From sequence record OP455115: a stretch of DNA of 50,158 bases. One strand, 5' to 3'. The translations under genes were made by a program, and so were the position numbers. Numbering within the stretch: the first letter of the stretch is position 1; every line of letters starts with the position of its first letter. The notes beneath the pieces are model-generated. The model did not search any database. It saw only the letters and a program-made list of their open reading frames with translations, and was not told the DNA's origin. Origin of the DNA: Escherichia phage LHE71. Shown piece after piece: positions 1,865 to 43,505 of the stretch.

Positions 1865-2434
1865 TTTATTGATGAACGTAGCGGCTATGTGCTGAGCGGT
1901 AATTTCTGGATGACCTTCTATAGCAAAGAAATCACACTCCTGATAACCATTAACCCCGATCATATCGTCCAGATAAATATAATCACGGCTGTCGTTGTCA
2001 AAGTTGCAGCCTTTGCGATGGATTCGGCATAGCTTGACCTGGATATCACCTTCAATCATCTGCAATACCTCATCCTTGAATCCTCCATCTGTAAATACCG
2101 ACAGAGAATCTGACTCTTTTACCTTGCATTCCGCTCGCATACCGAAAAATCGATTGCCAAATTGCGGCTTGATTACCTCCTCGCTAATCCAGATCATAAA
2201 TTGCCGTGGGCTTTTACCGTTCAGGATAGATGCTGGCTCTTCTTTATATCGACGGTCCTCATACAGGAACATGAAATACTCGAAATTAGCCTCACCCAAT
2301 ATTGCTCGTGCAATCTCAAACATTGGCGCTTTGAAGCTTCGTAGCGCTACGTGATCGTAAGTGTCAGCCAGGATGCATCCGATAGTGTCTTTTCCAGCGC
2401 CTGGTGCACCGTTTAAAATGATAGCTGTTTTCAT
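1862..2434 (-). CDS. P-loop kinase, deoxynucleoside monophosphate kinase-like
   Basis: Walker A GAPGAGKDT near N-terminus and LNGKSP motif; resembles phage dNMP kinases from memory. Confidence 0.55.
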   Translation of the reverse strand: MKTAIILNGAPGAGKDTIGCILADTYDHVALRSFKAPMFEIARAILGEANFEYFMFLYEDRRYKEEPASILNGKSPRQFMIWISEEVIKPQFGNRFFGMRAECKVKESDSLSVFTDGGFKDEVLQMIEGDIQVKLCRIHRKGCNFDNDSRDYIYLDDMIGVNGYQECDFFAIEGHPEITAQHIAATFINK

Positions 2435-2435
2435 G

Positions 2436-2546
2436 TTAGTATCTCCCTAAAAATAATTTTGCCACATTGATGATGGTGTGATTGATGATTAACAGTATAA
2501 TAACCGTTAATACCGGATGCGCTGCAATAAATTCGTACATGTTCAT
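2436..2546 (-). CDS. Small hydrophobic peptide (36 aa)
   Basis: ORF absent from the supplied track (below its size cutoff); ATGA overlap with the HAD gene stop; predicted single TM segment. Confidence 0.35.
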   Translation of the reverse strand: MNMYEFIAAHPVLTVIILLIINHTIINVAKLFLGRY

Positions 2547-3076
2547 TCATCTACTCCGTGAGATTTTAAATGATCGTGGACGTTATCGCCATAGTCAACT
2601 ACAGCATACGTAGTTATTCCAAGCGATCGGAATAATGGAATAATTTGCGGTGAGTCATCCCAAGCTGCCAGAATGTTATCAACGCCGATCGCGCGCACCG
2701 CCTCTTCTTTCATTACCGTGTCTTTGCGGTTGTCGGTATGCGGCCTCATGACTAAGTAATCATATCTTGCGCCGTGATGCTTAAGCCATAACTCAGATGC
2801 GTAACGCACCTCATCGCTTCTCCCGGTTAAAATGATCACATGATAACCAGCTGCAAACATAGAGTTCATCACTTCAATCGTACTCTGGATTGGGTTATCA
2901 AATATTGCCGCGCGGTTAAACTCAGACCAGCTTTCAGTCAAGTGCAAATCCTTTGTCGGTAGCAGGTGAAGTCGCTTTGAGCCATCACTCAGCGTTCCGT
3001 CAAAGTCAAAGATTGCTACGCGGCGCGTGCCGAGAAACAGGTTGATAGTCTGACCCCAAATGGTGACTTTATCCAT
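2543..3076 (-). CDS. HAD-superfamily phosphatase
   Basis: HAD motif I FDFDGTL (DxDxT) near N-terminus; 177 aa. Confidence 0.6.
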   Translation of the reverse strand: MDKVTIWGQTINLFLGTRRVAIFDFDGTLSDGSKRLHLLPTKDLHLTESWSEFNRAAIFDNPIQSTIEVMNSMFAAGYHVIILTGRSDEVRYASELWLKHHGARYDYLVMRPHTDNRKDTVMKEEAVRAIGVDNILAAWDDSPQIIPLFRSLGITTYAVVDYGDNVHDHLKSHGVDE

Positions 3077-3279
3077 TACGCTTTCTCCTGTACGCGAATG
3101 ATTTTGATGGTTAATTCTTCTTCAACAATTTTGTAGCCGGATGATTCAAATTTACTCTCACGAGTCTGATTGCATGAATCAATAACTACCTGGCTATTCT
3201 GAATATCGTCAGCCATGCCGATTAGCATGCTAACGATCTGCGTTCTCGTTTCGTTGCTCATTCCGGTAATAGTTTTCAT
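3076..3279 (-). CDS. Hypothetical protein
   Basis: 67-aa ORF downstream of a promoter-like module. Confidence 0.5.
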   Translation of the reverse strand: MKTITGMSNETRTQIVSMLIGMADDIQNSQVVIDSCNQTRESKFESSGYKIVEEELTIKIIRVQEKA

Positions 3280-3346
3280 ATTGATTCCTCTGATTGGTTG
3301 CTTAACTCAACGAAGGGCATTCTATCAAATGCCCTTGAGCAAGTTT

Positions 3347-3361
3347 TAGCAATTCGTGTTA
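3347..3361. promoter_or_regulatory. Palindromic intergenic motif instance (TAGCAATTCGTGTTA)
   Basis: Inverted repeat; 22 nt to TAGAAT with TGn extension on the minus strand. Confidence 0.45.
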
Positions 3362-3808
3362 TTACCAGTAATCGACCTCGTAGTCGGCCCAAGCGTCAAA
3401 ATCACTTTGGCAGAATGTGCCGCTATAATTTTCCATAATTTCATCGATCAGGAAGTAGCATGATTCGCCGTTACGATAGAAGTATGAATCTGCAACGTTG
3501 CGCGCCCAGCGCCCGGCGTCCTTCTTACTCATCTTCCAGCGCTTCATTGCGATTTTCTTGAATGCACGCACAACACGTTTGCGGATCTTGATATGCTTGT
3601 ACACCGCGTTGCAGCCGTAAGCCATATATTCATTATTACCAATATTCTGCATGATGTACGGATTAACGTCTTTTGACGTAATCATCAGATCGCCATCGCC
3701 GCGACGCGCATCATAAATGCTTGCTGTCATGTAGTGGCCTTTGAACATTCCAATGCCGTGCAGAGTGTATTCATTATTAGGTGTGTCAATGCAAATTAAG
3801 TGTTTCAT
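3362..3808 (-). CDS. Hypothetical protein
   Basis: Start moved to internal Met MKHLICID, which has SD GAGGAA; the longer ORF start lacks an SD. Confidence 0.5.
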   Translation of the reverse strand: MKHLICIDTPNNEYTLHGIGMFKGHYMTASIYDARRGDGDLMITSKDVNPYIMQNIGNNEYMAYGCNAVYKHIKIRKRVVRAFKKIAMKRWKMSKKDAGRWARNVADSYFYRNGESCYFLIDEIMENYSGTFCQSDFDAWADYEVDYW

Positions 3809-3865
3809 GAGTGATTCCTCGTTTGTTGGTGTAGGGGAATCATAGCGCATTCCCCTTGATAGGTT

Positions 3866-4084
3866 TTAGCAATTCGTGCTATTCGTTTTAATAGTGATGC
3901 AAAAATAATTTTTTAAGCACGTCACCACGCGCGCTGAATCGACTTGTGGAAGCCTTAAAATTTCATGGACCAGTTGCACTGGCGACACCTCAGATTTGTA
4001 GTAGTGTGCGATTCTGGAGGTGTTTGGGCGCATTCCTTCCACTGCGTCGCGTGCTGCATCTTCTGCTGTCATGATAGTAGCCAT
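3866..4084 (-). CDS. Hypothetical protein
   Basis: 72-aa ORF with AAGGGTG SD; its 3' end runs into the palindromic motif. Confidence 0.4.
   Translation of the reverse strand: MATIMTAEDAARDAVEGMRPNTSRIAHYYKSEVSPVQLVHEILRLPQVDSARVVTCLKNYFCITIKTNSTNC
3867..3881. promoter_or_regulatory. Palindromic intergenic motif instance (TAGCAATTCGTGCTA)
   Basis: Inverted repeat; 22 nt to TATGAT on the minus strand, with -10 inside a hairpin loop. Confidence 0.45.
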
Positions 4085-4179
4085 AAAACACCCTTAAGAG
4101 ATAATGTCAGGACCAGGAGGCAAAATAGCAACTCCTGAAATGATGGCGGCTCGTTATTCCAGTTAGTGAAGTCTGGCAT
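4072..4179 (-). CDS. Small hydrophobic peptide (35 aa), speculative
   Basis: ORF absent from the supplied track (below its size cutoff); SD GGAG 9 nt upstream of ATG; hydrophobic; overlaps next gene start. Confidence 0.25.
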
Positions 4180-4190
4180 AGTTCTTTCTC

Positions 4191-4225
4191 CAAAAGAAAG
4201 GGGAACCGTTCAGAGCCGATTCCCC
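4191..4225 (-). terminator. Candidate rho-independent terminator
   Basis: Stem GGGGAA/TTCCCC with 14-nt loop followed by a T-rich tract on the minus strand, after the 4233..4871 gene. Confidence 0.4.
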
Positions 4226-4232
4226 ATTAGCA

Positions 4233-4871
4233 TTACATGATGAAAAGCAGCGAAATAGCAGCGACCAGGAGAACAAGCGAGGCGGCAAGATTGAATAAAT
4301 CCACCTTCTCTTTAAACTTCAGCGCTGGCTTGTGGTCAACTTCCGACGGCTTGACGTTATGGATCTTGTTAGCTGCAATCTTGCCGTTAACGCAGAAAGT
4401 GCTCTTACGCTTCTTGCCGAACGTTGCGAACTTAGTGCCGCCGCTGTTCCAACGAAGACCTTCGCCGTTGTGGGTTACGGTAGCAATGCGGTGACGGCCC
4501 GTGTCGTCGGTCAGCGCTACAGTGTGCTTTGCGTGCTCAGTAGGCACGTCGTAGATTTTGCCAACGGTAAATTTTTTGGTGTTATCACTGATACATTCAA
4601 ATTTCATAAATTTTACCTCTTTATTATGCAGTTGGTTGATTGCTTCGATTACGTCGTTAAATTTAACACCATCCACGATTCGATGGAAGATATATTTTGA
4701 ACTACCGCCATAAGGCAGGAAAATTTCCTGATATTCGTGACGCCTGACAACGTTCACATTGCATCCGTTCTCATCAGTAATGATAAAACTATCATCATTT
4801 ACTCGCGCACCTTTGTAAGTTTTGCCCCACTTGAAACCAGATCCGCTACTCGATACACATTCAAATTTCAT
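4233..4871 (-). CDS. Membrane-anchored protein with two tandem copies of the small paralogous domain
   Basis: Internal repeat MKFEC(V/I)S...GK(T/I)Y twice; C-terminal hydrophobic anchor LAASLVLLVAAISLLFIM. Confidence 0.55.
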   Translation of the reverse strand: MKFECVSSSGSGFKWGKTYKGARVNDDSFIITDENGCNVNVVRRHEYQEIFLPYGGSSKYIFHRIVDGVKFNDVIEAINQLHNKEVKFMKFECISDNTKKFTVGKIYDVPTEHAKHTVALTDDTGRHRIATVTHNGEGLRWNSGGTKFATFGKKRKSTFCVNGKIAANKIHNVKPSEVDHKPALKFKEKVDLFNLAASLVLLVAAISLLFIM

Positions 4872-5155
4872 GGTTTAATGATCCTGTAAGGTTTGATTGA
4901 TAACATCACGTATTGCGTGAAGTCGCATTCTTGATCGTCATAGCCGCGATTGATGTATGGCGTCACGTCGGTAACATCGGACACCCTGGCATGTACTTCC
5001 CATCCGGTAAACTCACCGCGATCGAACTCGCATAGCTCAAGGATATCTCCAAGCTGGAATTTTCGGTCATTGATGCGGAACTCCGCTGTTTTGTTCCCGT
5101 TCATTACACCGATGAAATGTACCGGGGCGATTTTTAACTTATGAGTTTTGCTCAT
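4868..5155 (-). CDS. ASCH/DUF3850-like PUA-fold protein
   Basis: 95 aa; HKLKI...F...G.KT.E.R.NDR.FQ.GD.L pattern typical of DUF3850 from memory. Confidence 0.5.
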   Translation of the reverse strand: MSKTHKLKIAPVHFIGVMNGNKTAEFRINDRKFQLGDILELCEFDRGEFTGWEVHARVSDVTDVTPYINRGYDDQECDFTQYVMLSIKPYRIIKP

Positions 5156-5173
5156 CTTTCTTTACCTCGAATG

Positions 5174-5356
5174 TCACGTTCCAGAATTTATTGCCTCATG
5201 AATGATAGATACGTCCTGAGACGTGAGTTCGTGCAATGCGTGCCCGATAATCTCCATTCGGTCATTCGGCGCCATTCCACGAAGTGATTCACGTATGCGC
5301 GATGCCTTGTCGTAAATCTGCCATTGGGTGAGTCGTGTAGCCATAGCTGATTCCAT
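5174..5356 (-). CDS. Hypothetical protein
   Basis: 60-aa ORF with protein-like composition; preferred over the overlapping 5188..5382 frame. Confidence 0.4.
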   Translation of the reverse strand: MESAMATRLTQWQIYDKASRIRESLRGMAPNDRMEIIGHALHELTSQDVSIIHEAINSGT

Positions 5357-5378
5357 GATGAGTTAACTCGAATGTCTC

Positions 5379-5591
5379 TCATTGATTTTCTGCCTCTTCC
5401 GCCGCCAGGATAAGCGCCGCCGCTAATTTGCGAGCCGCGTCAGGTGAGTATTGCATCAGTGTTTGGCCATCTGCGTAACCCTCAGGATCGAAGTCCAGGT
5501 TGACAACATTACCACGAACGGTTCCCATCGTGACGCTGACCTCTGCTTGGTCAAAGTTAACATCGTCAATACGTACAGTTTCCATAATCAT
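5379..5591 (-). CDS. Hypothetical acidic protein
   Basis: 70-aa ORF downstream of a promoter-like module. Confidence 0.5.
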   Translation of the reverse strand: MIMETVRIDDVNFDQAEVSVTMGTVRGNVVNLDFDPEGYADGQTLMQYSPDAARKLAAALILAAEEAENQ

Positions 5592-5643
5592 TTCCTCTTC
5601 GTTGTTGATATGGCAATCATAGCTGACTACCCGATTTATTGTT

Positions 5644-5658
5644 TAGCAATTCGTGCTA
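5644..5658. promoter_or_regulatory. Palindromic intergenic motif instance (TAGCAATTCGTGCTA)
   Basis: Inverted repeat; 22 nt to TATGAT on the minus strand. Confidence 0.45.
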
Positions 5659-5722
5659 TTTAATAACTTCTTGATGCGATTGCGATAAAACTGCATTATG
5701 TGCTCATTGTGCCAATTGCTCA

Positions 5723-6220
5723 TTATTTCACCTCGTAGCGTACAAGCGTTCCGCGCTTAATGCTGATTTCACCTGATACCGTCTTGTTCTTAAATCCGCC
5801 GTAATGCAACAGGAGAATCACCACATCATCGTGTACCTCAATAGTTTTAGGAGTGGCGGTAATATCGATCCATGATTCGCTATCAAGTTGGACACCCTTT
5901 AGCGTCGCGCTCAATGGCATGTTCTCGATCTGAGTGCACTGTAGCGATGGCTTGATTTCTGGCTTTGCGCTATGAAAGATGGCTCGGCCAGCTTTCCAAC
6001 CAGCTTTCCAGCCAGGACCAACATACTCAACATAATATGGAAGAGATGGGATGTTATCAGGGTTGTGATTGTTATGAAGCTCAATGAGATTGCCAACGAT
6101 AGACGGATGGCACTCATTGAATGACGAATCTGTTGCACGGTCTTTGCTATGGCAGGTTATTTTCCCGCAGCTAATAGTGTTAAAAACCACAGGGAATTTA
6201 ATCTCGTTTAATTTCAACAT
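5723..6220 (-). CDS. Hypothetical Cys/His-rich protein
   Basis: 165-aa ORF next to the DpdA-like/YhhQ-like pair; N-terminal C-x4-CH...CH cluster; no family recognised. Confidence 0.5.
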   Translation of the reverse strand: MLKLNEIKFPVVFNTISCGKITCHSKDRATDSSFNECHPSIVGNLIELHNNHNPDNIPSLPYYVEYVGPGWKAGWKAGRAIFHSAKPEIKPSLQCTQIENMPLSATLKGVQLDSESWIDITATPKTIEVHDDVVILLLHYGGFKNKTVSGEISIKRGTLVRYEVK

Positions 6221-6287
6221 AATGATTTCCTCTTATTGGTTGCTCTGCTTCAATAAGGACACTATAACAAATGTCCTTGCGGAAGGT

Positions 6288-7115
6288 TTAGCAATTCGTG
6301 CTATTCCACTCGCTAATTTTCGGAGGCTTTACAGATTCAATGCAGTTCTTCAATATCGCACACCTTTCGGCAAGTATGTCTGATTTGCTGCCACCTTTGG
6401 AAAGGCATTGATCTACAGCTTGCTTAACGTCATCAGTATCAATCCACTTATCCTTGTGGATACTCCTCCTGCAAGCCTCAATTGTCACTACTTTATTTAT
6501 GGCAAGGTACTTAGGAACGTTGCAAGCCAGGTTAGTGCTATCTGCTGAGTTTAGAGGGTAGTTACCTAAAACTCTTCCATCAAGCATCCTTAATCCATGC
6601 AGCTTCACGTCAACCTGTGATTCTTTAACTGCTGAGAAAGCCTCGCTTATTCTTTGCTTCCACTTAGCGGATCTGACTGTTGCAAATTCACCAGAAGAAC
6701 CCATGCATACCCAATCCCATTTTTCACACAGACTTATCAGCCTACTGATTGGCTCATGCATATGCCACACCGGGGCGGCCTTGCTTTTAAGATCTGACGG
6801 CAGTTGAGATATGAGCTTATCATTATCCTCCGCGCTTCCTGTTATATCATCAGGGATAACAAAGAATCTCAATTTAGGATTATCAAACCAGTCAGGAAGA
6901 AAGTTGAAATAAAACTCCCTCCAGTCCTGAACCTTTCCGCTCTTCCACTTTGAGAATGCCCCATTATCTATGCATACCGTCTCAGCCACATCGAAGGCTA
7001 GCTTTATCTGGTCTGGTCGCTCAAAGGATACGAACGCACCACTTCCACGGTGCGCAATTCGTGCAATCCTTCCCTTATCTCCCCATATTGGAGATCCGTG
7101 AAAGTGAATTGTCAT
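6288..7115 (-). CDS. Alpha/beta enzyme, candidate tRNA-guanine-transglycosylase-like DNA-modification enzyme (DpdA-like)
   Basis: 275 aa with alternating strand/helix pattern; IDNGAF resembles the TGT DSGGFQ motif; ATGA-coupled to the upstream YhhQ-like gene. Function is inference. Confidence 0.4.
   Translation of the reverse strand: MTIHFHGSPIWGDKGRIARIAHRGSGAFVSFERPDQIKLAFDVAETVCIDNGAFSKWKSGKVQDWREFYFNFLPDWFDNPKLRFFVIPDDITGSAEDNDKLISQLPSDLKSKAAPVWHMHEPISRLISLCEKWDWVCMGSSGEFATVRSAKWKQRISEAFSAVKESQVDVKLHGLRMLDGRVLGNYPLNSADSTNLACNVPKYLAINKVVTIEACRRSIHKDKWIDTDDVKQAVDQCLSKGGSKSDILAERCAILKNCIESVKPPKISEWNSTNC
6289..6303. promoter_or_regulatory. Palindromic intergenic motif instance (TAGCAATTCGTGCTA)
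   Basis: Inverted repeat; 22 nt to TGtTATAGT (extended -10) inside a hairpin loop on the minus strand. Confidence 0.45.
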
Positions 7116-7591
7116 AGTTTAAATTTCCTCATGATAGCTATGATTATAAATGCGCCAACTGTCTTAGCTGCGAATTGTGCCAATGAAACATCAATCATTA
7201 CCGTTCCGAATGCTATCATCGGGAATGCTATTGAGTCAATCGCAGCCGACACTGTATTTGCGGGAATGGATTTACTGTAGAAATCACCACGCTTGAATTT
7301 GAACGTTATAGCGCTGCCTGTGCCAGCCAGCATTACCGATGACACTGAGGCGATCGCTATCATCCCTGCGTCTGGATCTATCAAAACGGTAGCAATACCT
7401 GCTGAAAGGCAAGCAATCATAGAATGCCAGAAACCAAATTTGTGCTGTATCTTATCCCTGATAACCATATCTGCCGATATGATTACGAGCGCATTAATCG
7501 GAGTGGCCCACACACCGAAATATGCAACCGACAGGTTTGCTGAAACATACAGCAAAACGAACAATGCAACCATTACTGATAACTTACGCAT
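7112..7591 (-). CDS. Multi-pass membrane protein, YhhQ/queuosine-precursor-transporter-like
   Basis: 159 aa, several TM helices; motifs SANL...W, SAD, NTVSAAIDSIAF..IAFG line up with recalled E. coli YhhQ motifs. Confidence 0.45.
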   Translation of the reverse strand: MRKLSVMVALFVLLYVSANLSVAYFGVWATPINALVIISADMVIRDKIQHKFGFWHSMIACLSAGIATVLIDPDAGMIAIASVSSVMLAGTGSAITFKFKRGDFYSKSIPANTVSAAIDSIAFPMIAFGTVMIDVSLAQFAAKTVGAFIIIAIMRKFKL

Positions 7592-7712
7592 ACTGGCTCT
7601 CCTGAGAAAATTGGTATAATTTGGATATTCGGTCTTACCTGCCTGATTCTGTTTACGGTTGATTCGTCACTTAGAGGATAAAAAACACCATTTACTAGCC
7701 ACCCTATCCTAG

Positions 7713-7883
7713 TCATTCGTCAGACTCTCCAATATATTTAGCCTCTTTCCATTGAGAGTATGCATCTTGCTCGCTGAACCCGTAGCCAGTAAAGCCACCA
7801 CCTTGACACATGAATCGCTTAAATTTCATGATTCCTTTGTAGCTGTAGCCACGGTCGGTGATTTTGCATTCTTCGTTAATCAT
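7713..7883 (-). CDS. Small hypothetical protein (56 aa)
   Basis: ORF absent from the supplied track (below its size cutoff); SD GAGGAAA upstream of ATG; directly downstream of a promoter-like module. Confidence 0.4.
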   Translation of the reverse strand: MINEECKITDRGYSYKGIMKFKRFMCQGGGFTGYGFSEQDAYSQWKEAKYIGESDE

Positions 7884-7942
7884 CTTCGTTTCCTCGCTCG
7901 TTGTCGATGGGATAACTATACCAGGTTATCCCGATCCAGTTT

Positions 7943-7957
7943 TAACAAAAAGTGCTA
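7943..7957. promoter_or_regulatory. Palindromic intergenic motif instance (TAACAAAAAGTGCTA)
   Basis: Inverted repeat; 22 nt to TGgTATAGT then leader TTATCCCATCGACAACGAG on the minus strand. Confidence 0.45.
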
Positions 7958-8278
7958 CTCTACGATGAACTCAACATTTACCGGGGTCCACTCTTCCATC
8001 CTGGGGATTGAGAGATTTTCCACCTCGCACATATTCCCCTCAACCTTGACAAGTTTTAATTTTTGGTTATTCACCTTCTGCATTCTCATCACGAGGTATC
8101 TTGCTTTCTCGTTTATGGTGCGTTTATCCACGCCTTTTGTGAAGTACATGGGGCCAACAGTGTCGAGGTTTATTTTGATTGACCGCTTACCAATCAGTGC
8201 ATCAGCTATTACCTGAATGTTTGCGTTCTGCTTTGCGTATGCGTAGCGGCCCTCTTCTGTTGTTACGTGTTCAAACAT
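7955..8278 (-). CDS. Hypothetical protein
   Basis: Start set at ATG 8278, which has SD GGAGGA 6 nt upstream. Confidence 0.5.
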   Translation of the reverse strand: MFEHVTTEEGRYAYAKQNANIQVIADALIGKRSIKINLDTVGPMYFTKGVDKRTINEKARYLVMRMQKVNNQKLKLVKVEGNMCEVENLSIPRMEEWTPVNVEFIVE

Positions 8279-8290
8279 AATCACTCCTCC

Positions 8291-8866
8291 TTACAGTCCA
8301 CATTTTTCTATATGCGCTTTCATCTGGCGAACCAGGTCGCGCACAGTGCTTACAGTCACATCACCTTGCTCAATGTCATCAATATCAGGAGTGAAAGAAT
8401 CAAGGCAGTCAGCCAGGCTAACTTTTTTCCGGCTGCGGCGCTTCTTCACCGGAACCTCTTCGTCACTCACCGAGATAGTAACGACTCGCAACTTCTCATC
8501 GTTCATGGTCACGCTAACCTTGACAGATTTGCCGATCTTGGAGAAGTGGCGCGATACGATCGGGGTGATGAATGAGGATTTAAACTTCTCGTTAATCTCT
8601 TCAGTCTTCCCTAACAGCCAGGACTCAGCATATCCGCTAACGGCATCGTCATCAGCGTCAGGAACTGACTTTCTCACTGCTGCCTCAGCCATCTGAGTAG
8701 CATCGAATGTGAACTCGGTATTCTCGCCATCACCATAAAGCTGGTCGCAAGCCGCCCGGATAACATCAGTCACCTTCGCCTCCTGGCGCTGGTTAACGGT
8801 CACGCCAGCTTTCTCGTAAGCTGCCTGGATTGCTGCCTGAACTGCATCTGATTGGTAAGAACTCAT
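8291..8866 (-). CDS. Hypothetical acidic protein, first gene of leftward early arm
   Basis: Start set at internal Met MSSYQ with SD AAGGAG; the longer ORF N-terminus has no SD. Confidence 0.55.
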   Translation of the reverse strand: MSSYQSDAVQAAIQAAYEKAGVTVNQRQEAKVTDVIRAACDQLYGDGENTEFTFDATQMAEAAVRKSVPDADDDAVSGYAESWLLGKTEEINEKFKSSFITPIVSRHFSKIGKSVKVSVTMNDEKLRVVTISVSDEEVPVKKRRSRKKVSLADCLDSFTPDIDDIEQGDVTVSTVRDLVRQMKAHIEKCGL

Positions 8867-8981
8867 AGCTTTCTCCTTAGTTTCAATATACACAATAATT
8901 AACGCGTAACAGCGTGTCTCTGATTGCAGTGTTACACGTCGACCCGCTTGTGTCAATGCTTACAGGCCGATTTTAAGTGTG

Positions 8982-9008
8982 GTTAATCGTGTTAATCGTG
9001 TTAATCGC
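8982..9008. repeat. Tandem 9-bp repeat (GTTAATCGT x3)
   Basis: Three direct copies in the divergent control region. Confidence 0.6.
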
Positions 9009-9285: not shown

Positions 9286-9300
9286 TAGCACGTTTTGCTA
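9286..9300. promoter_or_regulatory. Palindromic intergenic motif instance (TAGCACGTTTTGCTA)
   Basis: Inverted repeat in the control region; no obvious -10 at the usual 22-nt spacing. Confidence 0.35.
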
Positions 9301-9490
9301 AAAATGGAGGTGACTACCGGGCGAACCGGGTAACACTAATTCCTCCCTCTCACAATCATTGCATTCTAAGCAACAATCACATCAACAGTTGCACACCATG
9401 CAACAATCACATTTCATCATTCGCAATCAATCACAATCAAAATTATTCCAGATATTCCAGTATTGATGGAATAATGAGCAACTATTTGAA

Positions 9491-9693: not shown

Positions 9694-9716
9694 GGTCAAT
9701 CAGGAGAATGCAACAA

Positions 9717-10423
9717 ATGAAATTAATCTGGTCACTATTTGACGGTTCAGGTCTTGCTGGTCATGAGCTGGCAAAGCAAGGTCACAAGGTGATGTGCTTC
9801 AACTTTGACGGAGCCGATCACGGTGATTACGCAAAGTACAATGCCAGAGTCGAGCATCCGAACATTGAGTATGTGAACGTCTTCATTGATGAGAAGTTCG
9901 AACGTGATGCTATCGCTGGCGTGTACGGAAAGCCGGATTTTATTATGGCCTTCCCGCCGTGCACTGACCTGGCTGTTAGTGCCGCCGCCGCCTCTTTGCC
10001 AGCAAGCGTGAACGTGATCCGTTATTCCAGGAGAAGGCTGTTGCCACCGCAAGGATTGCTGCGAACATTGGCGAGGCGCTTGGTGTTACTTACATCATTG
10101 AGAATCCGGTGAGCGTCCTGTCGTCTGCGTGGAGAAAACCAAATCACTCCTTCAATCCCTGGGAGTATGGCGGCTATCTTCCCGAGAATGACGTGCATCC
10201 CTGGTTCCCGATGTATATTGCGCCGCGAGATGCTTACCCGAAGAAGACTTGTCTGTGGACCTCTGACGATTTTGTCATGCCAAAAAGGAAACCTGTAAGA
10301 CTGCCTGACGGGTACTCTGCACAGCAAAACAAGCTGGGCGGCAAGTCTGCCAAAACGAAGCTGATACGATCCCTGTCGCCGCGTGGATTTTTCAAAGCGA
10401 TCGCAAATAGCACTTTTTGTTAA
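9717..10423 (+). CDS. DNA (cytosine-5)-methyltransferase-like gene interrupted by a -1 frameshift at a GCC repeat
   Basis: N-terminal frame has motif I-like LFDGSGLAG and motif IV-like FPPCTDLAVS; downstream frame has RDPLF and IIENPV (motif V/VI-like); frames switch within 9980..9992. Confidence 0.4.
10408..10422. promoter_or_regulatory. Palindromic motif of promoter module
   Basis: TAGCACTTTTTGTTA, then 22 nt, then CATAAT (10445..10450) and leader TACCTCATCGAAACGAG. Confidence 0.5.
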
Positions 10424-10482
10424 AACTCGAACGATATGATTTGGCATAATTACCTCATCGAAACGAGATTGAGGAAAACAAA

Positions 10483-24174: not shown

Positions 24175-24181
24175 CTATGTT

Positions 24182-24196
24182 TAGCAATTCGTGCTA
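24182..24196. promoter_or_regulatory. Palindromic motif in operator position of tail fibre promoter
   Basis: TAGCAATTCGTGCTA between the predicted -10 and the SD AAGGAG. Confidence 0.45.
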
Positions 24197-43469: not shown

Positions 43470-43484
43470 TAGCACTTTTTGTTA
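43470..43484. promoter_or_regulatory. Palindromic motif instance upstream of the capsid gene
   Basis: TAGCACTTTTTGTTA adjacent to the hairpin containing CATAAT. Confidence 0.45.
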
Positions 43485-43505
43485 AAGCGTCAAAGTGTTT
43501 TTATG

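Follow-up and report, generated by a model that had tools for sequence, protein, structure and literature searches.

A candidate 7-deazaguanine DNA-modification cassette with a short YhhQ-family transporter and a DpdA-like transglycosylase in the T1-like Escherichia phage LHE71

Modification of DNA with 7-deazaguanine bases is an established counter-defence of phages, and singleton DpdA transglycosylases form the largest group in the survey of Hutinet et al. (2019). For this DpdA-only group (group 3; 76 phage genomes), supply of the base by the host or its uptake has been proposed (Hutinet et al., 2019). Homologues of the queuosine-precursor transporter YhhQ were noted in some phages in the same study, which reported 'no correlation' for this gene, and for CDKM15, eHP-6 and phiLM21 its Supplementary Data 1 gives only DpdA and a neighboring YhhQ. 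In phage CAjan, deletion of DpdA abolishes dPreQ0, the deoxynucleoside of the 7-deazaguanine preQ0. Here, we analyze a gene pair for a predicted short transporter and a DpdA-like enzyme in the DNA of Escherichia phage LHE71 (sequence record OP455115; 50,158 nucleotides (nt), the whole of which is referred to as the window). An earlier note, made from the sequence alone, had singled out this pair as a candidate module for 7-deazaguanine salvage. On balance, we favor a minimal 7-deazaguanine DNA-modification cassette without biosynthesis genes, consisting of an importer and a DpdA-like enzyme.

The enzyme, the transporter and their linkage

The pair belongs to a cassette of four overlapping genes on the minus strand, in the order 56-amino acid (aa) open reading frame (ORF), 47-aa ORF, transporter gene (Vut) and DpdA-like gene:

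7713..7883, minus strand: 56-aa ORF that opens the cassette operon and overlaps the 47-aa ORF through ATGA
7573..7716, minus strand: conserved 47-aa ORF with the motif IGWLVNGxFY, the end of which overlaps the Vut start by 19 nt
7112..7591, minus strand: predicted short Vut_1/YhhQ-family inner-membrane transporter, 159 aa, six transmembrane helices
6288..7115, minus strand: DpdA-like transglycosylase of the tRNA-guanine transglycosylase (TGT) superfamily, 275 aa, a minimal TIM barrel without the Zn subdomain

The three ORFs described in the earlier note, 7112-7591 (159 aa), 6288-7115 (275 aa) and the adjacent 5723-6220 (165 aa), are all present on the minus strand, and direct reading of the sequence confirmed that the Vut stop and the DpdA-like start share ATGA (...AAA CTA TGA / ATG ACA...), as had been claimed. 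All four cassette genes are under purifying selection, the ratio of nonsynonymous to synonymous substitution rates (dN/dS) between the window and Escherichia phage Lg3 being 0.05-0.11.

Searches of Pfam, NCBIfam and PDB sequences with the 275-aa protein, either as a single sequence or as a 73-sequence profile, were empty, so that structure and phage-specific profiles were needed. The protein matches PHROG 887, 'queuine tRNA-ribosyltransferase', at E 1e-76, and its family comprises more than 4000 clusters, nearly all of them 'hypothetical' and many from enterobacterial prophages. An AlphaFold model based on a 73-sequence alignment (predicted local distance difference test score, pLDDT, 94.9) has the form of an eight-stranded beta/alpha TIM barrel, the top structural matches of which are Cap10, the DNA preQ0-insertase DpdA and ArcTGT. 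A Foldseek comparison with viral models gave 30 matches at E<=1e-3, and all of the named ones are phage queuine tRNA-ribosyltransferases. The family profile also matches CAjan DpdA (hhalign probability 92%, E 5e-7; hmmsearch E 6e-8), while pairwise similarity of the window proteins to their CAjan counterparts is very low (tblastn E ~1e-3). Among studied relatives, the nearest by sequence is the singleton DpdA from Salmonella phage 7-11 (35% identity), a phage with 2'-deoxy-7-amido-7-deazaguanosine (dADG) in its virion DNA, and identity to the proteins of 7-11, HK106, PEAT2 and SEN1 ranges from 35 to 59%. The protein falls in the 'singleton, gamma-proteobacterial' cluster of Hutinet et al. (2019), together with 7-11, HK106, SfI, BTP1, SEN1 and PEAT2.

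The earlier note had likened the IDNGAF motif, which occupies residues 49-54, to the active-site motif of TGT enzymes. This proposal is borne out by conservation: D50-N-G-A-F54 is invariant in 73 close and ten divergent members (down to ~36% identity), and the region aligns with LDSGAF of CAjan DpdA in hhalign. Also invariant in the ten divergent members are P88-D89, H118, G139, H173-G-L-R-M-L and A191-D192-S-x-N, with S141 of the G139(SSG) loop being invariant in the close set only. In the model, the invariant motifs lie at the C-terminal ends of beta3, beta4, beta5, beta6, beta7 and beta8: P88-D89, H118 and G139 are at the ends of strands 82-86, 116-118 and 135-139, and A191-D192-S193, which aligns with CDSS of CAjan DpdA, is at the end of strand 190-193. 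The layout matches that of Asp95/Phe99, Asp130, His181, the Gly loop and Asp256 of DpdA, as mapped by strand order and not by three-dimensional superposition; in the hhalign alignment the CAjan Asp lands 2-3 residues off D89. In DpdA, Asp95, which forms a D-x-G-x-F motif with Phe99, acts as the general acid/base, Asp130 and His181 recognize the base, and Asp256 is the nucleophile (Gedara et al., 2023; PMC10164549).

No conserved Cys cluster for a structural Zn site was found in the 275-aa protein, C130, C137, C198 and C252 all varying in distant members. This is not disqualifying, because the validated CAjan DpdA also lacks the site and has only four scattered Cys; the structural Zn site marks cellular TGT enzymes and bacterial DpdA, not phage DpdA. 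On the strength of the modeled fold, the profile match to CAjan DpdA and the invariant catalytic residues, we file the 275-aa protein as a predicted phage DpdA-type member of the TGT superfamily. The earlier note had assigned it in this way and had proposed structure and profile comparisons with TGT and DpdA, which returned both the TGT fold and DpdA matches.

Singleton genes of the same family occur elsewhere. Genes encoding proteins ~50% identical to the window protein lie directly upstream of gpA in Salmonella P2/186-like prophages (5001-5831), and another lies between the holin and endolysin genes of a lambdoid-type E. coli prophage (5001-5810). The transporter is absent beside both of these sampled prophage types, and the family is very widespread and unannotated in enterobacterial prophages.

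The 159-aa protein alone scores below the cut-off of Pfam Vut_1 (PF02592; E 0.019, 15.8 bits against a cut-off of 27.2). A first search yielded eight relatives, the three most distant of which carry PF02592, and the resulting nine-sequence profile found 5069 proteins of about 157-172 aa; PF02592 is present in nearly all of the 120 that were listed, several of which go by the name 'queuosine precursor transporter' or YhhQ. Vut_1 is matched by 61 of the 68 aligned subfamily members (best E 7e-13). The profile matches CAjan gp41, a 159-aa 'putative preQ0 transporter', with 94.6% probability (hhalign E 7e-8; hidden Markov model (HMM) E 2e-9), and the protein has six helices in a fold like that of the S-component of energy-coupling factor (ECF) transporters. 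Against the 221-aa E. coli YhhQ, hhalign gave E 9e-4 and a probability of 23%, over the C-terminal half only. This weak half-length match points to a distinct short Vut_1 subfamily rather than to a YhhQ orthologue; together with the difference in length (159 versus 221 aa) it led us to reject orthology with E. coli YhhQ while keeping membership in Vut_1. By sequence comparison, the protein is placed in a short (~160 aa), phage-borne Vut_1/YhhQ subfamily that includes CAjan gp41. The description of the protein as YhhQ-like in the earlier note thus holds for the six helices and for the Vut_1/YhhQ family, as detected by profile, and has to be loosened with respect to E. coli YhhQ, which is only a distant relative; the comparison with YhhQ that the note had suggested gave Vut_1 family matches and only a weak direct one. 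Characterised Vut_1 members such as YhhQ reportedly transport 7-deazaguanines. From the family and from the gene linkage described below, we infer that the 159-aa protein would transport preQ0 or preQ1.

The phage database contains 20 records with the transporter and 104 with the DpdA-like enzyme, and in 13 of the 20 the transporter gene abuts a DpdA-like gene. Carriers of the pair are Lg3, Phc, Opt-79, Opt-719, Phleasolo, Sadiya, RCIP0319, Tbat1_6, PEAT2, ECO111 5-P and Acinetobacter AB3P2. Distant metagenomic Vut clusters behave in the same way: all six that were sampled have a DpdA-like neighbor, unannotated but recognizable by hhalign (E 7e-56 and 1e-40) and HMM searches (E 1e-29 to 1e-123), and the sampled contigs carry phage hallmark genes. 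Freshwater phages and AB3P2 have DpdA ahead of Vut, enterobacterial phages have Vut ahead of DpdA, and the two genes overlap by 4-31 nt in all ten contexts measured, in both orders and down to ~36% identity. The Vut and DpdA-like genes are thus evolutionarily coupled. This near-obligate association between short Vut_1 transporters and DpdA-like genes is new with respect to the published 'no correlation' and refines that statement.

The exception is the mEp021 group, in which a 170-aa Vut homologue lies between an N6-adenine methyltransferase-like gene and a phrog_757 methyltransferase gene (2991-5259), and no DpdA-like ORF was found in the first 23 kb of mEp021. The gene following the Vut homologue, mEp021_33, was considered as a DpdA and rejected, being a phrog_757 DNA methyltransferase without similarity. 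The same lineage, the only uncoupled one found, also includes mEp554, mEp044, mEp010, mEp515, mEp013 and MagusPhagus. The converse linkage fails, since most DpdA-like genes occur without Vut (104 versus 20 records), so that the transporter looks like an accessory of the enzyme.

Both genes of the pair are labeled 'hypothetical protein' in Lg3, Phc and RCIP0319, and many such 'hypothetical' phage gene pairs, including these three, are suggested for DpdA/preQ-transporter annotation. PEAT2 has the pair (3965-5190), with the RefSeq label 'VUT family protein' on the transporter; Supplementary Data 1 of Hutinet et al. (2019) records only DpdA for this phage, so that the published census undercounts phages with both DpdA and the transporter.

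Supply of the base, proposed pathway and alternatives

Where could the base come from? The absence of QueC, QueD, QueE and FolE genes from the window, as stated in the earlier note, was upheld: tblastn with the CAjan enzymes gave only E>0.4, and no que-type Pfam family was found among 51 further window ORFs, each of at least 90 aa. The conclusion drawn there, that the phage would have to import the base, is overstated. E. coli synthesizes preQ0 itself and carries a yhhQ gene, and DpdA of phage 9g alone puts dPreQ0 into plasmid DNA in E. coli (Hutinet et al., 2019). In CAjan folE and queC mutants, modification falls 12-fold and does not vanish, the remainder coming from the host pool, and a CAjan yhhQ deletion has no phenotype. 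From the host preQ0 and yhhQ, the 9g enzyme working alone and the CAjan mutants, base import is probably an enhancement rather than a necessity.

The proposed pathway is as follows: early in infection, transcription of the cassette operon would start from the repeat element at ~7941, and translation of its genes would be coupled. With its six helices, the Vut protein would insert into the inner membrane and import a free 7-deazaguanine, most likely preQ0 and possibly preQ1 or queuine, which would add to the preQ0 made by the host QueCDE/FolE pathway. Then the DpdA-like enzyme would exchange guanine in replicated phage DNA for this base through a TGT-type double displacement, in which D192 would serve as the nucleophile and D50 as the general acid/base, D89 and H118 would read the base and F54 would stack on it. 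The progeny DNA would thereby gain partial protection against host restriction. The present analysis shows the fold, the family membership, the conserved catalytic residues, the gene linkage, the purifying selection and the lack of synthesis genes, whereas the base used, DNA as the acceptor, the direction of transport, the level of modification and any role of the small ORFs are parts of the pathway that we infer.

A bolder version deserves a place beside this one, though we give it clearly less credence and regard it as doubtful: the 47-aa ORF, Vut and DpdA-like trio would be a self-sufficient, salvage-only hypermodification system in which the small protein is a new transglycosylase accessory, and the system would be widespread, with thousands of short-Vut/DpdA pairs in uncultured phages. 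If this were true, scavenging by the phage importer, from the environment or from lysed neighbors, would determine how much of the base enters the DNA and perhaps also which base it is (preQ0, preQ1 or queuine).

Several observations call for caution about a DNA-modification cassette. Phage 7-11, the one tested singleton of the clade, contains only 50 dADG residues per 10^6 nt, which corresponds to 0.02% of G (Hutinet et al., 2019). The same authors warned that singleton DpdA proteins may have diverged in function. In addition, Cap10 represents a TGT fold with an intact base pocket that serves a protein substrate.

The enzyme might act on RNA instead, modifying host or phage tRNA while the transporter raises the supply of queuosine precursors, so that the cassette tunes translation and gives no DNA protection. 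The ancestral substrate of TGT enzymes is tRNA, the family bears the label 'queuine tRNA-ribosyltransferase' in both PHROG and RefSeq, and 7-11 DNA is barely modified; moreover, some phage que genes have been suggested to boost queuosine in tRNA, along with the possible divergence of singletons (Hutinet et al., 2019). Nevertheless, bacterial and archaeal TGT enzymes carry a Zn subdomain and C-terminal RNA-binding domains, both of which the 275-aa protein, a bare barrel, lacks. The host already supplies a Tgt, CAjan DpdA, to which the family is homologous, works on DNA, and the Vut homologue of mEp021 stands among DNA methyltransferase genes. Taken together, these points make an RNA target unlikely.

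About equally unlikely is an enzyme that uses the host preQ0 pool only, with Vut being redundant or having another role such as export, transport of another substrate or superinfection exclusion. The frequent occurrence of DpdA-like genes without Vut would fit such a scheme, as would the lack of a phenotype in the CAjan yhhQ deletion, the presence of YhhQ in the host, the mEp021-type phages with Vut and without a DpdA-like gene, and the distance of the window transporter from E. coli YhhQ (E 9e-4, probability 23%). What it leaves unaccounted for is the overlapping adjacency seen in all sampled lineages but one: its maintenance through order inversions and divergence to ~36% identity is hard to explain without a shared function, and the strong purifying selection on the cassette also argues against a redundant transporter. 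Least credible, and in our view highly improbable, is a Cap10-like enzyme that handles a protein-attached 7-deazaguanine, or removes or transfers the base against type IV CBASS (cyclic oligonucleotide-based antiphage signaling system), QatABCD or bacterial Dpd; tblastn and Pfam scans gave no match to a CD-NTase or a QueC-family (Cap9-like) protein among the window ORFs. The DNA-modification cassette thus remains the reading that we prefer.

Cassette boundaries, small ORFs and neighboring genes

The window is a complete 50,158-bp genome of a T1-like siphophage (Drexlerviridae, Tunavirus-like), with Lg3 as the nearest GenBank record (89% identity across 82% of the 5000-9000 region). The Pfam scan of the 51 ORFs showed the usual T1 complement of portal, capsid, tape measure, terminase, primase/helicase, ERF, Dam and lysozyme. 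According to the alignment, the window and T1 are collinear through the 165-aa gene, and from ~6265 to ~7985 the window and Lg3 have a different segment (~1.7 kb), which stands where T1 has ST71-ST75. The cassette segment lies exactly between consecutive copies of a 17-nt repeat, at 6287-6303 and 7941-7957. About six of ~220 Drexlerviridae-type records, ~3% of the family, carry the cassette, which is thus a rare accessory; for phage therapy and for restriction-based typing of Drexlerviridae, this means that a ~3% subset may carry modified DNA. Features around the cassette are as follows:

7909..7957, minus strand: upstream cassette boundary, with the 17-nt repeat at 7941-7957, an inverted repeat and a ribosome-binding site (RBS), where the window/T1 alignment breaks
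6265..6303, minus strand: downstream cassette boundary, where the repeat copy 6287-6303 overlaps the DpdA-like stop (...EWNSTNC*) and T1 collinearity returns just below
5723..6220, minus strand: 165-aa gene, T1 ST70 homologue, outside the cassette
17-33, 1848-1864, 3865-3881, 5642-5658, 6287-6303, 7941-7957, 9286-9302, 10408-10424, 24180-24196 and 43470-43486: example sites of the 17-nt repeat

The repeat, TTTA[AG]CAA-N3-GTGCTA, has 21 copies in the genome against 0.5 expected in a motif scan. Its sites are gene ends or intergenic, and its orientation tracks gene direction. In the direction of transcription, the copy at 7941-7957 reads TAGCAC-N5-GTTAAA, and it is followed by an 8-bp inverted repeat, GGGATAAC/GTTATCCC (7909-7932), and then by the RBS GAGGA. 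A hairpin with TATAG follows the repeat at two sites. The repeat also occurs in T1 and Lg3, and the Lg3 DpdA gene ends in the same motif. The upstream boundary element is presumed to be a T1-type regulatory or promoter element, and the repeat probably combines a T1-type regulatory role with that of a recombination joint for cassette exchange. A sigma-70 promoter and terminator scan of 5500-8400 was uninformative (12 promoter sites versus 6.7 expected, zero terminators). Pairs of TTG[CT]TA...TATAGT near the repeat have a spacing of 22 nt and were therefore ruled out as a standard promoter.

The 47-aa ORF is found at the same position in Lg3, Opt-719, Phc, RCIP0319 and the metagenome contig L012, and is unannotated in the GenBank records of Lg3 (6062-6205, minus strand) and Phc (2373-2516, plus strand). 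Its dN/dS against Lg3 is 0.11, and its family consists of nine clusters in 1.84 billion proteins, seven of the nine being 46-47 aa in length. No Pfam or PHROG family was found for it. It is the third gene of the enterobacterial version of the module. A 1016-aa library protein matched it in five stretches and was set aside as a Listeria-Bacteroides repeat protein with short-motif resemblance only. The 56-aa ORF, which likewise has no family match in Pfam or PHROG, is 96% identical in Lg3 (dN/dS 0.056) and 60-66% identical over ~40 aa in Opt-719 and Phc. RCIP0319 and L012 lack it, and its conservation is limited to the cassettes of Drexlerviridae.

The 165-aa gene that the earlier note had described as an adjacent Cys/His-rich gene exists, with 4 Cys and 7 His, which makes it only mildly Cys/His-rich. 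It is a homologue of T1 ST70 (phrog_7116) with 91% identity in T1, and 222 phage records contain it, mostly without the transporter and enzyme genes; it therefore belongs to the T1 backbone, and we rejected it as a member of the module. Its C18-x4-C23-H24 ... C37-H38 pattern could bind metal.

Just downstream of the region, a 95-aa DUF3850/ASCH-like protein is encoded at 4868-5155 on the minus strand (Pfam E 8e-16; PHROG 'RNA-binding protein') as part of the T1 backbone. Binding of RNA or of modified bases has been linked to ASCH domains. On the other side, at 9708-10423 on the plus strand, a phrog_757 DNA methyltransferase (motif FPPCTDLAVS) is split over two frames. The break lies at ~9981-9992, where the sequence has been rewritten into (GCC)4 and is longer by 2 nt. 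Phage SH2 has an intact enzyme of 243 aa, to which each half is 93-96% identical, and the split gene may be a recent pseudogene, a phase-variable tract or a sequencing error. An intact Dam methyltransferase (Pfam PF05869) is encoded elsewhere in the genome.

Comparison with known systems

This kind of cassette is already known from phage anti-restriction modules, and its occurrence in T1-like Drexlerviridae is new; our literature search found no paper on such cassettes in this group. The earlier note had considered a transporter-dependent salvage route to be unusual for a phage, a view that is overstated in light of the published DpdA-only group, some members of which have an adjacent YhhQ (Hutinet et al., 2019), and of the CAjan cluster with its 159-aa yhhQ.

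Among more distant systems, Cap10 of type IV CBASS (PDB 9NTN) acts in concert with Cap9 and a CD-NTase, its substrate being a protein-linked base, and the window enzyme shares only the fold with it. Bacterial DpdA, as in the Dpd system of S. Montevideo (PDB 7UI4), has 413 aa, includes a large Ins8 insertion as well as a structural Zn site, and depends on the DpdB ATPase, whereas the window enzyme has 275 aa, no Zn site and no DpdB or DpdC partner. E. coli YhhQ (COG1738) resembles the window transporter in belonging to Vut_1, by transitive profile evidence, and in its six transmembrane helices and S-component-like fold, but it has 221 aa instead of 159, and the window subfamily is phage-borne.

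The CAjan system (Queuovirinae; dpdA gp35, yhhQ gp41, folE, queD, queE and queC) is nearer. Both of its proteins are homologous to those of the window by profile, its transporter also has 159 aa and its DpdA also lacks the Zn Cys cluster. Unlike the window phage, which is without synthesis genes, CAjan makes its own preQ0 and modifies ~25-32% of G, and its dpdA and yhhQ genes are not adjacent.

Likeness is also found in the DpdA-only phages: 7-11, HK106, SfI, BTP1 and PEAT2 have an enzyme of the same protein family and no preQ0 or G+ synthesis genes, and CDKM15, eHP-6 and phiLM21 have DpdA paired with YhhQ. A singleton DpdA together with a dedicated importer in a tractable, strictly lytic T1-like coliphage offers a simple system in which to ask whether salvage supports protective modification. 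The window differs from the published DpdA-only group in its place among the T1-like Drexlerviridae and in its 47-aa and 56-aa ORFs, which have not been described in that group.

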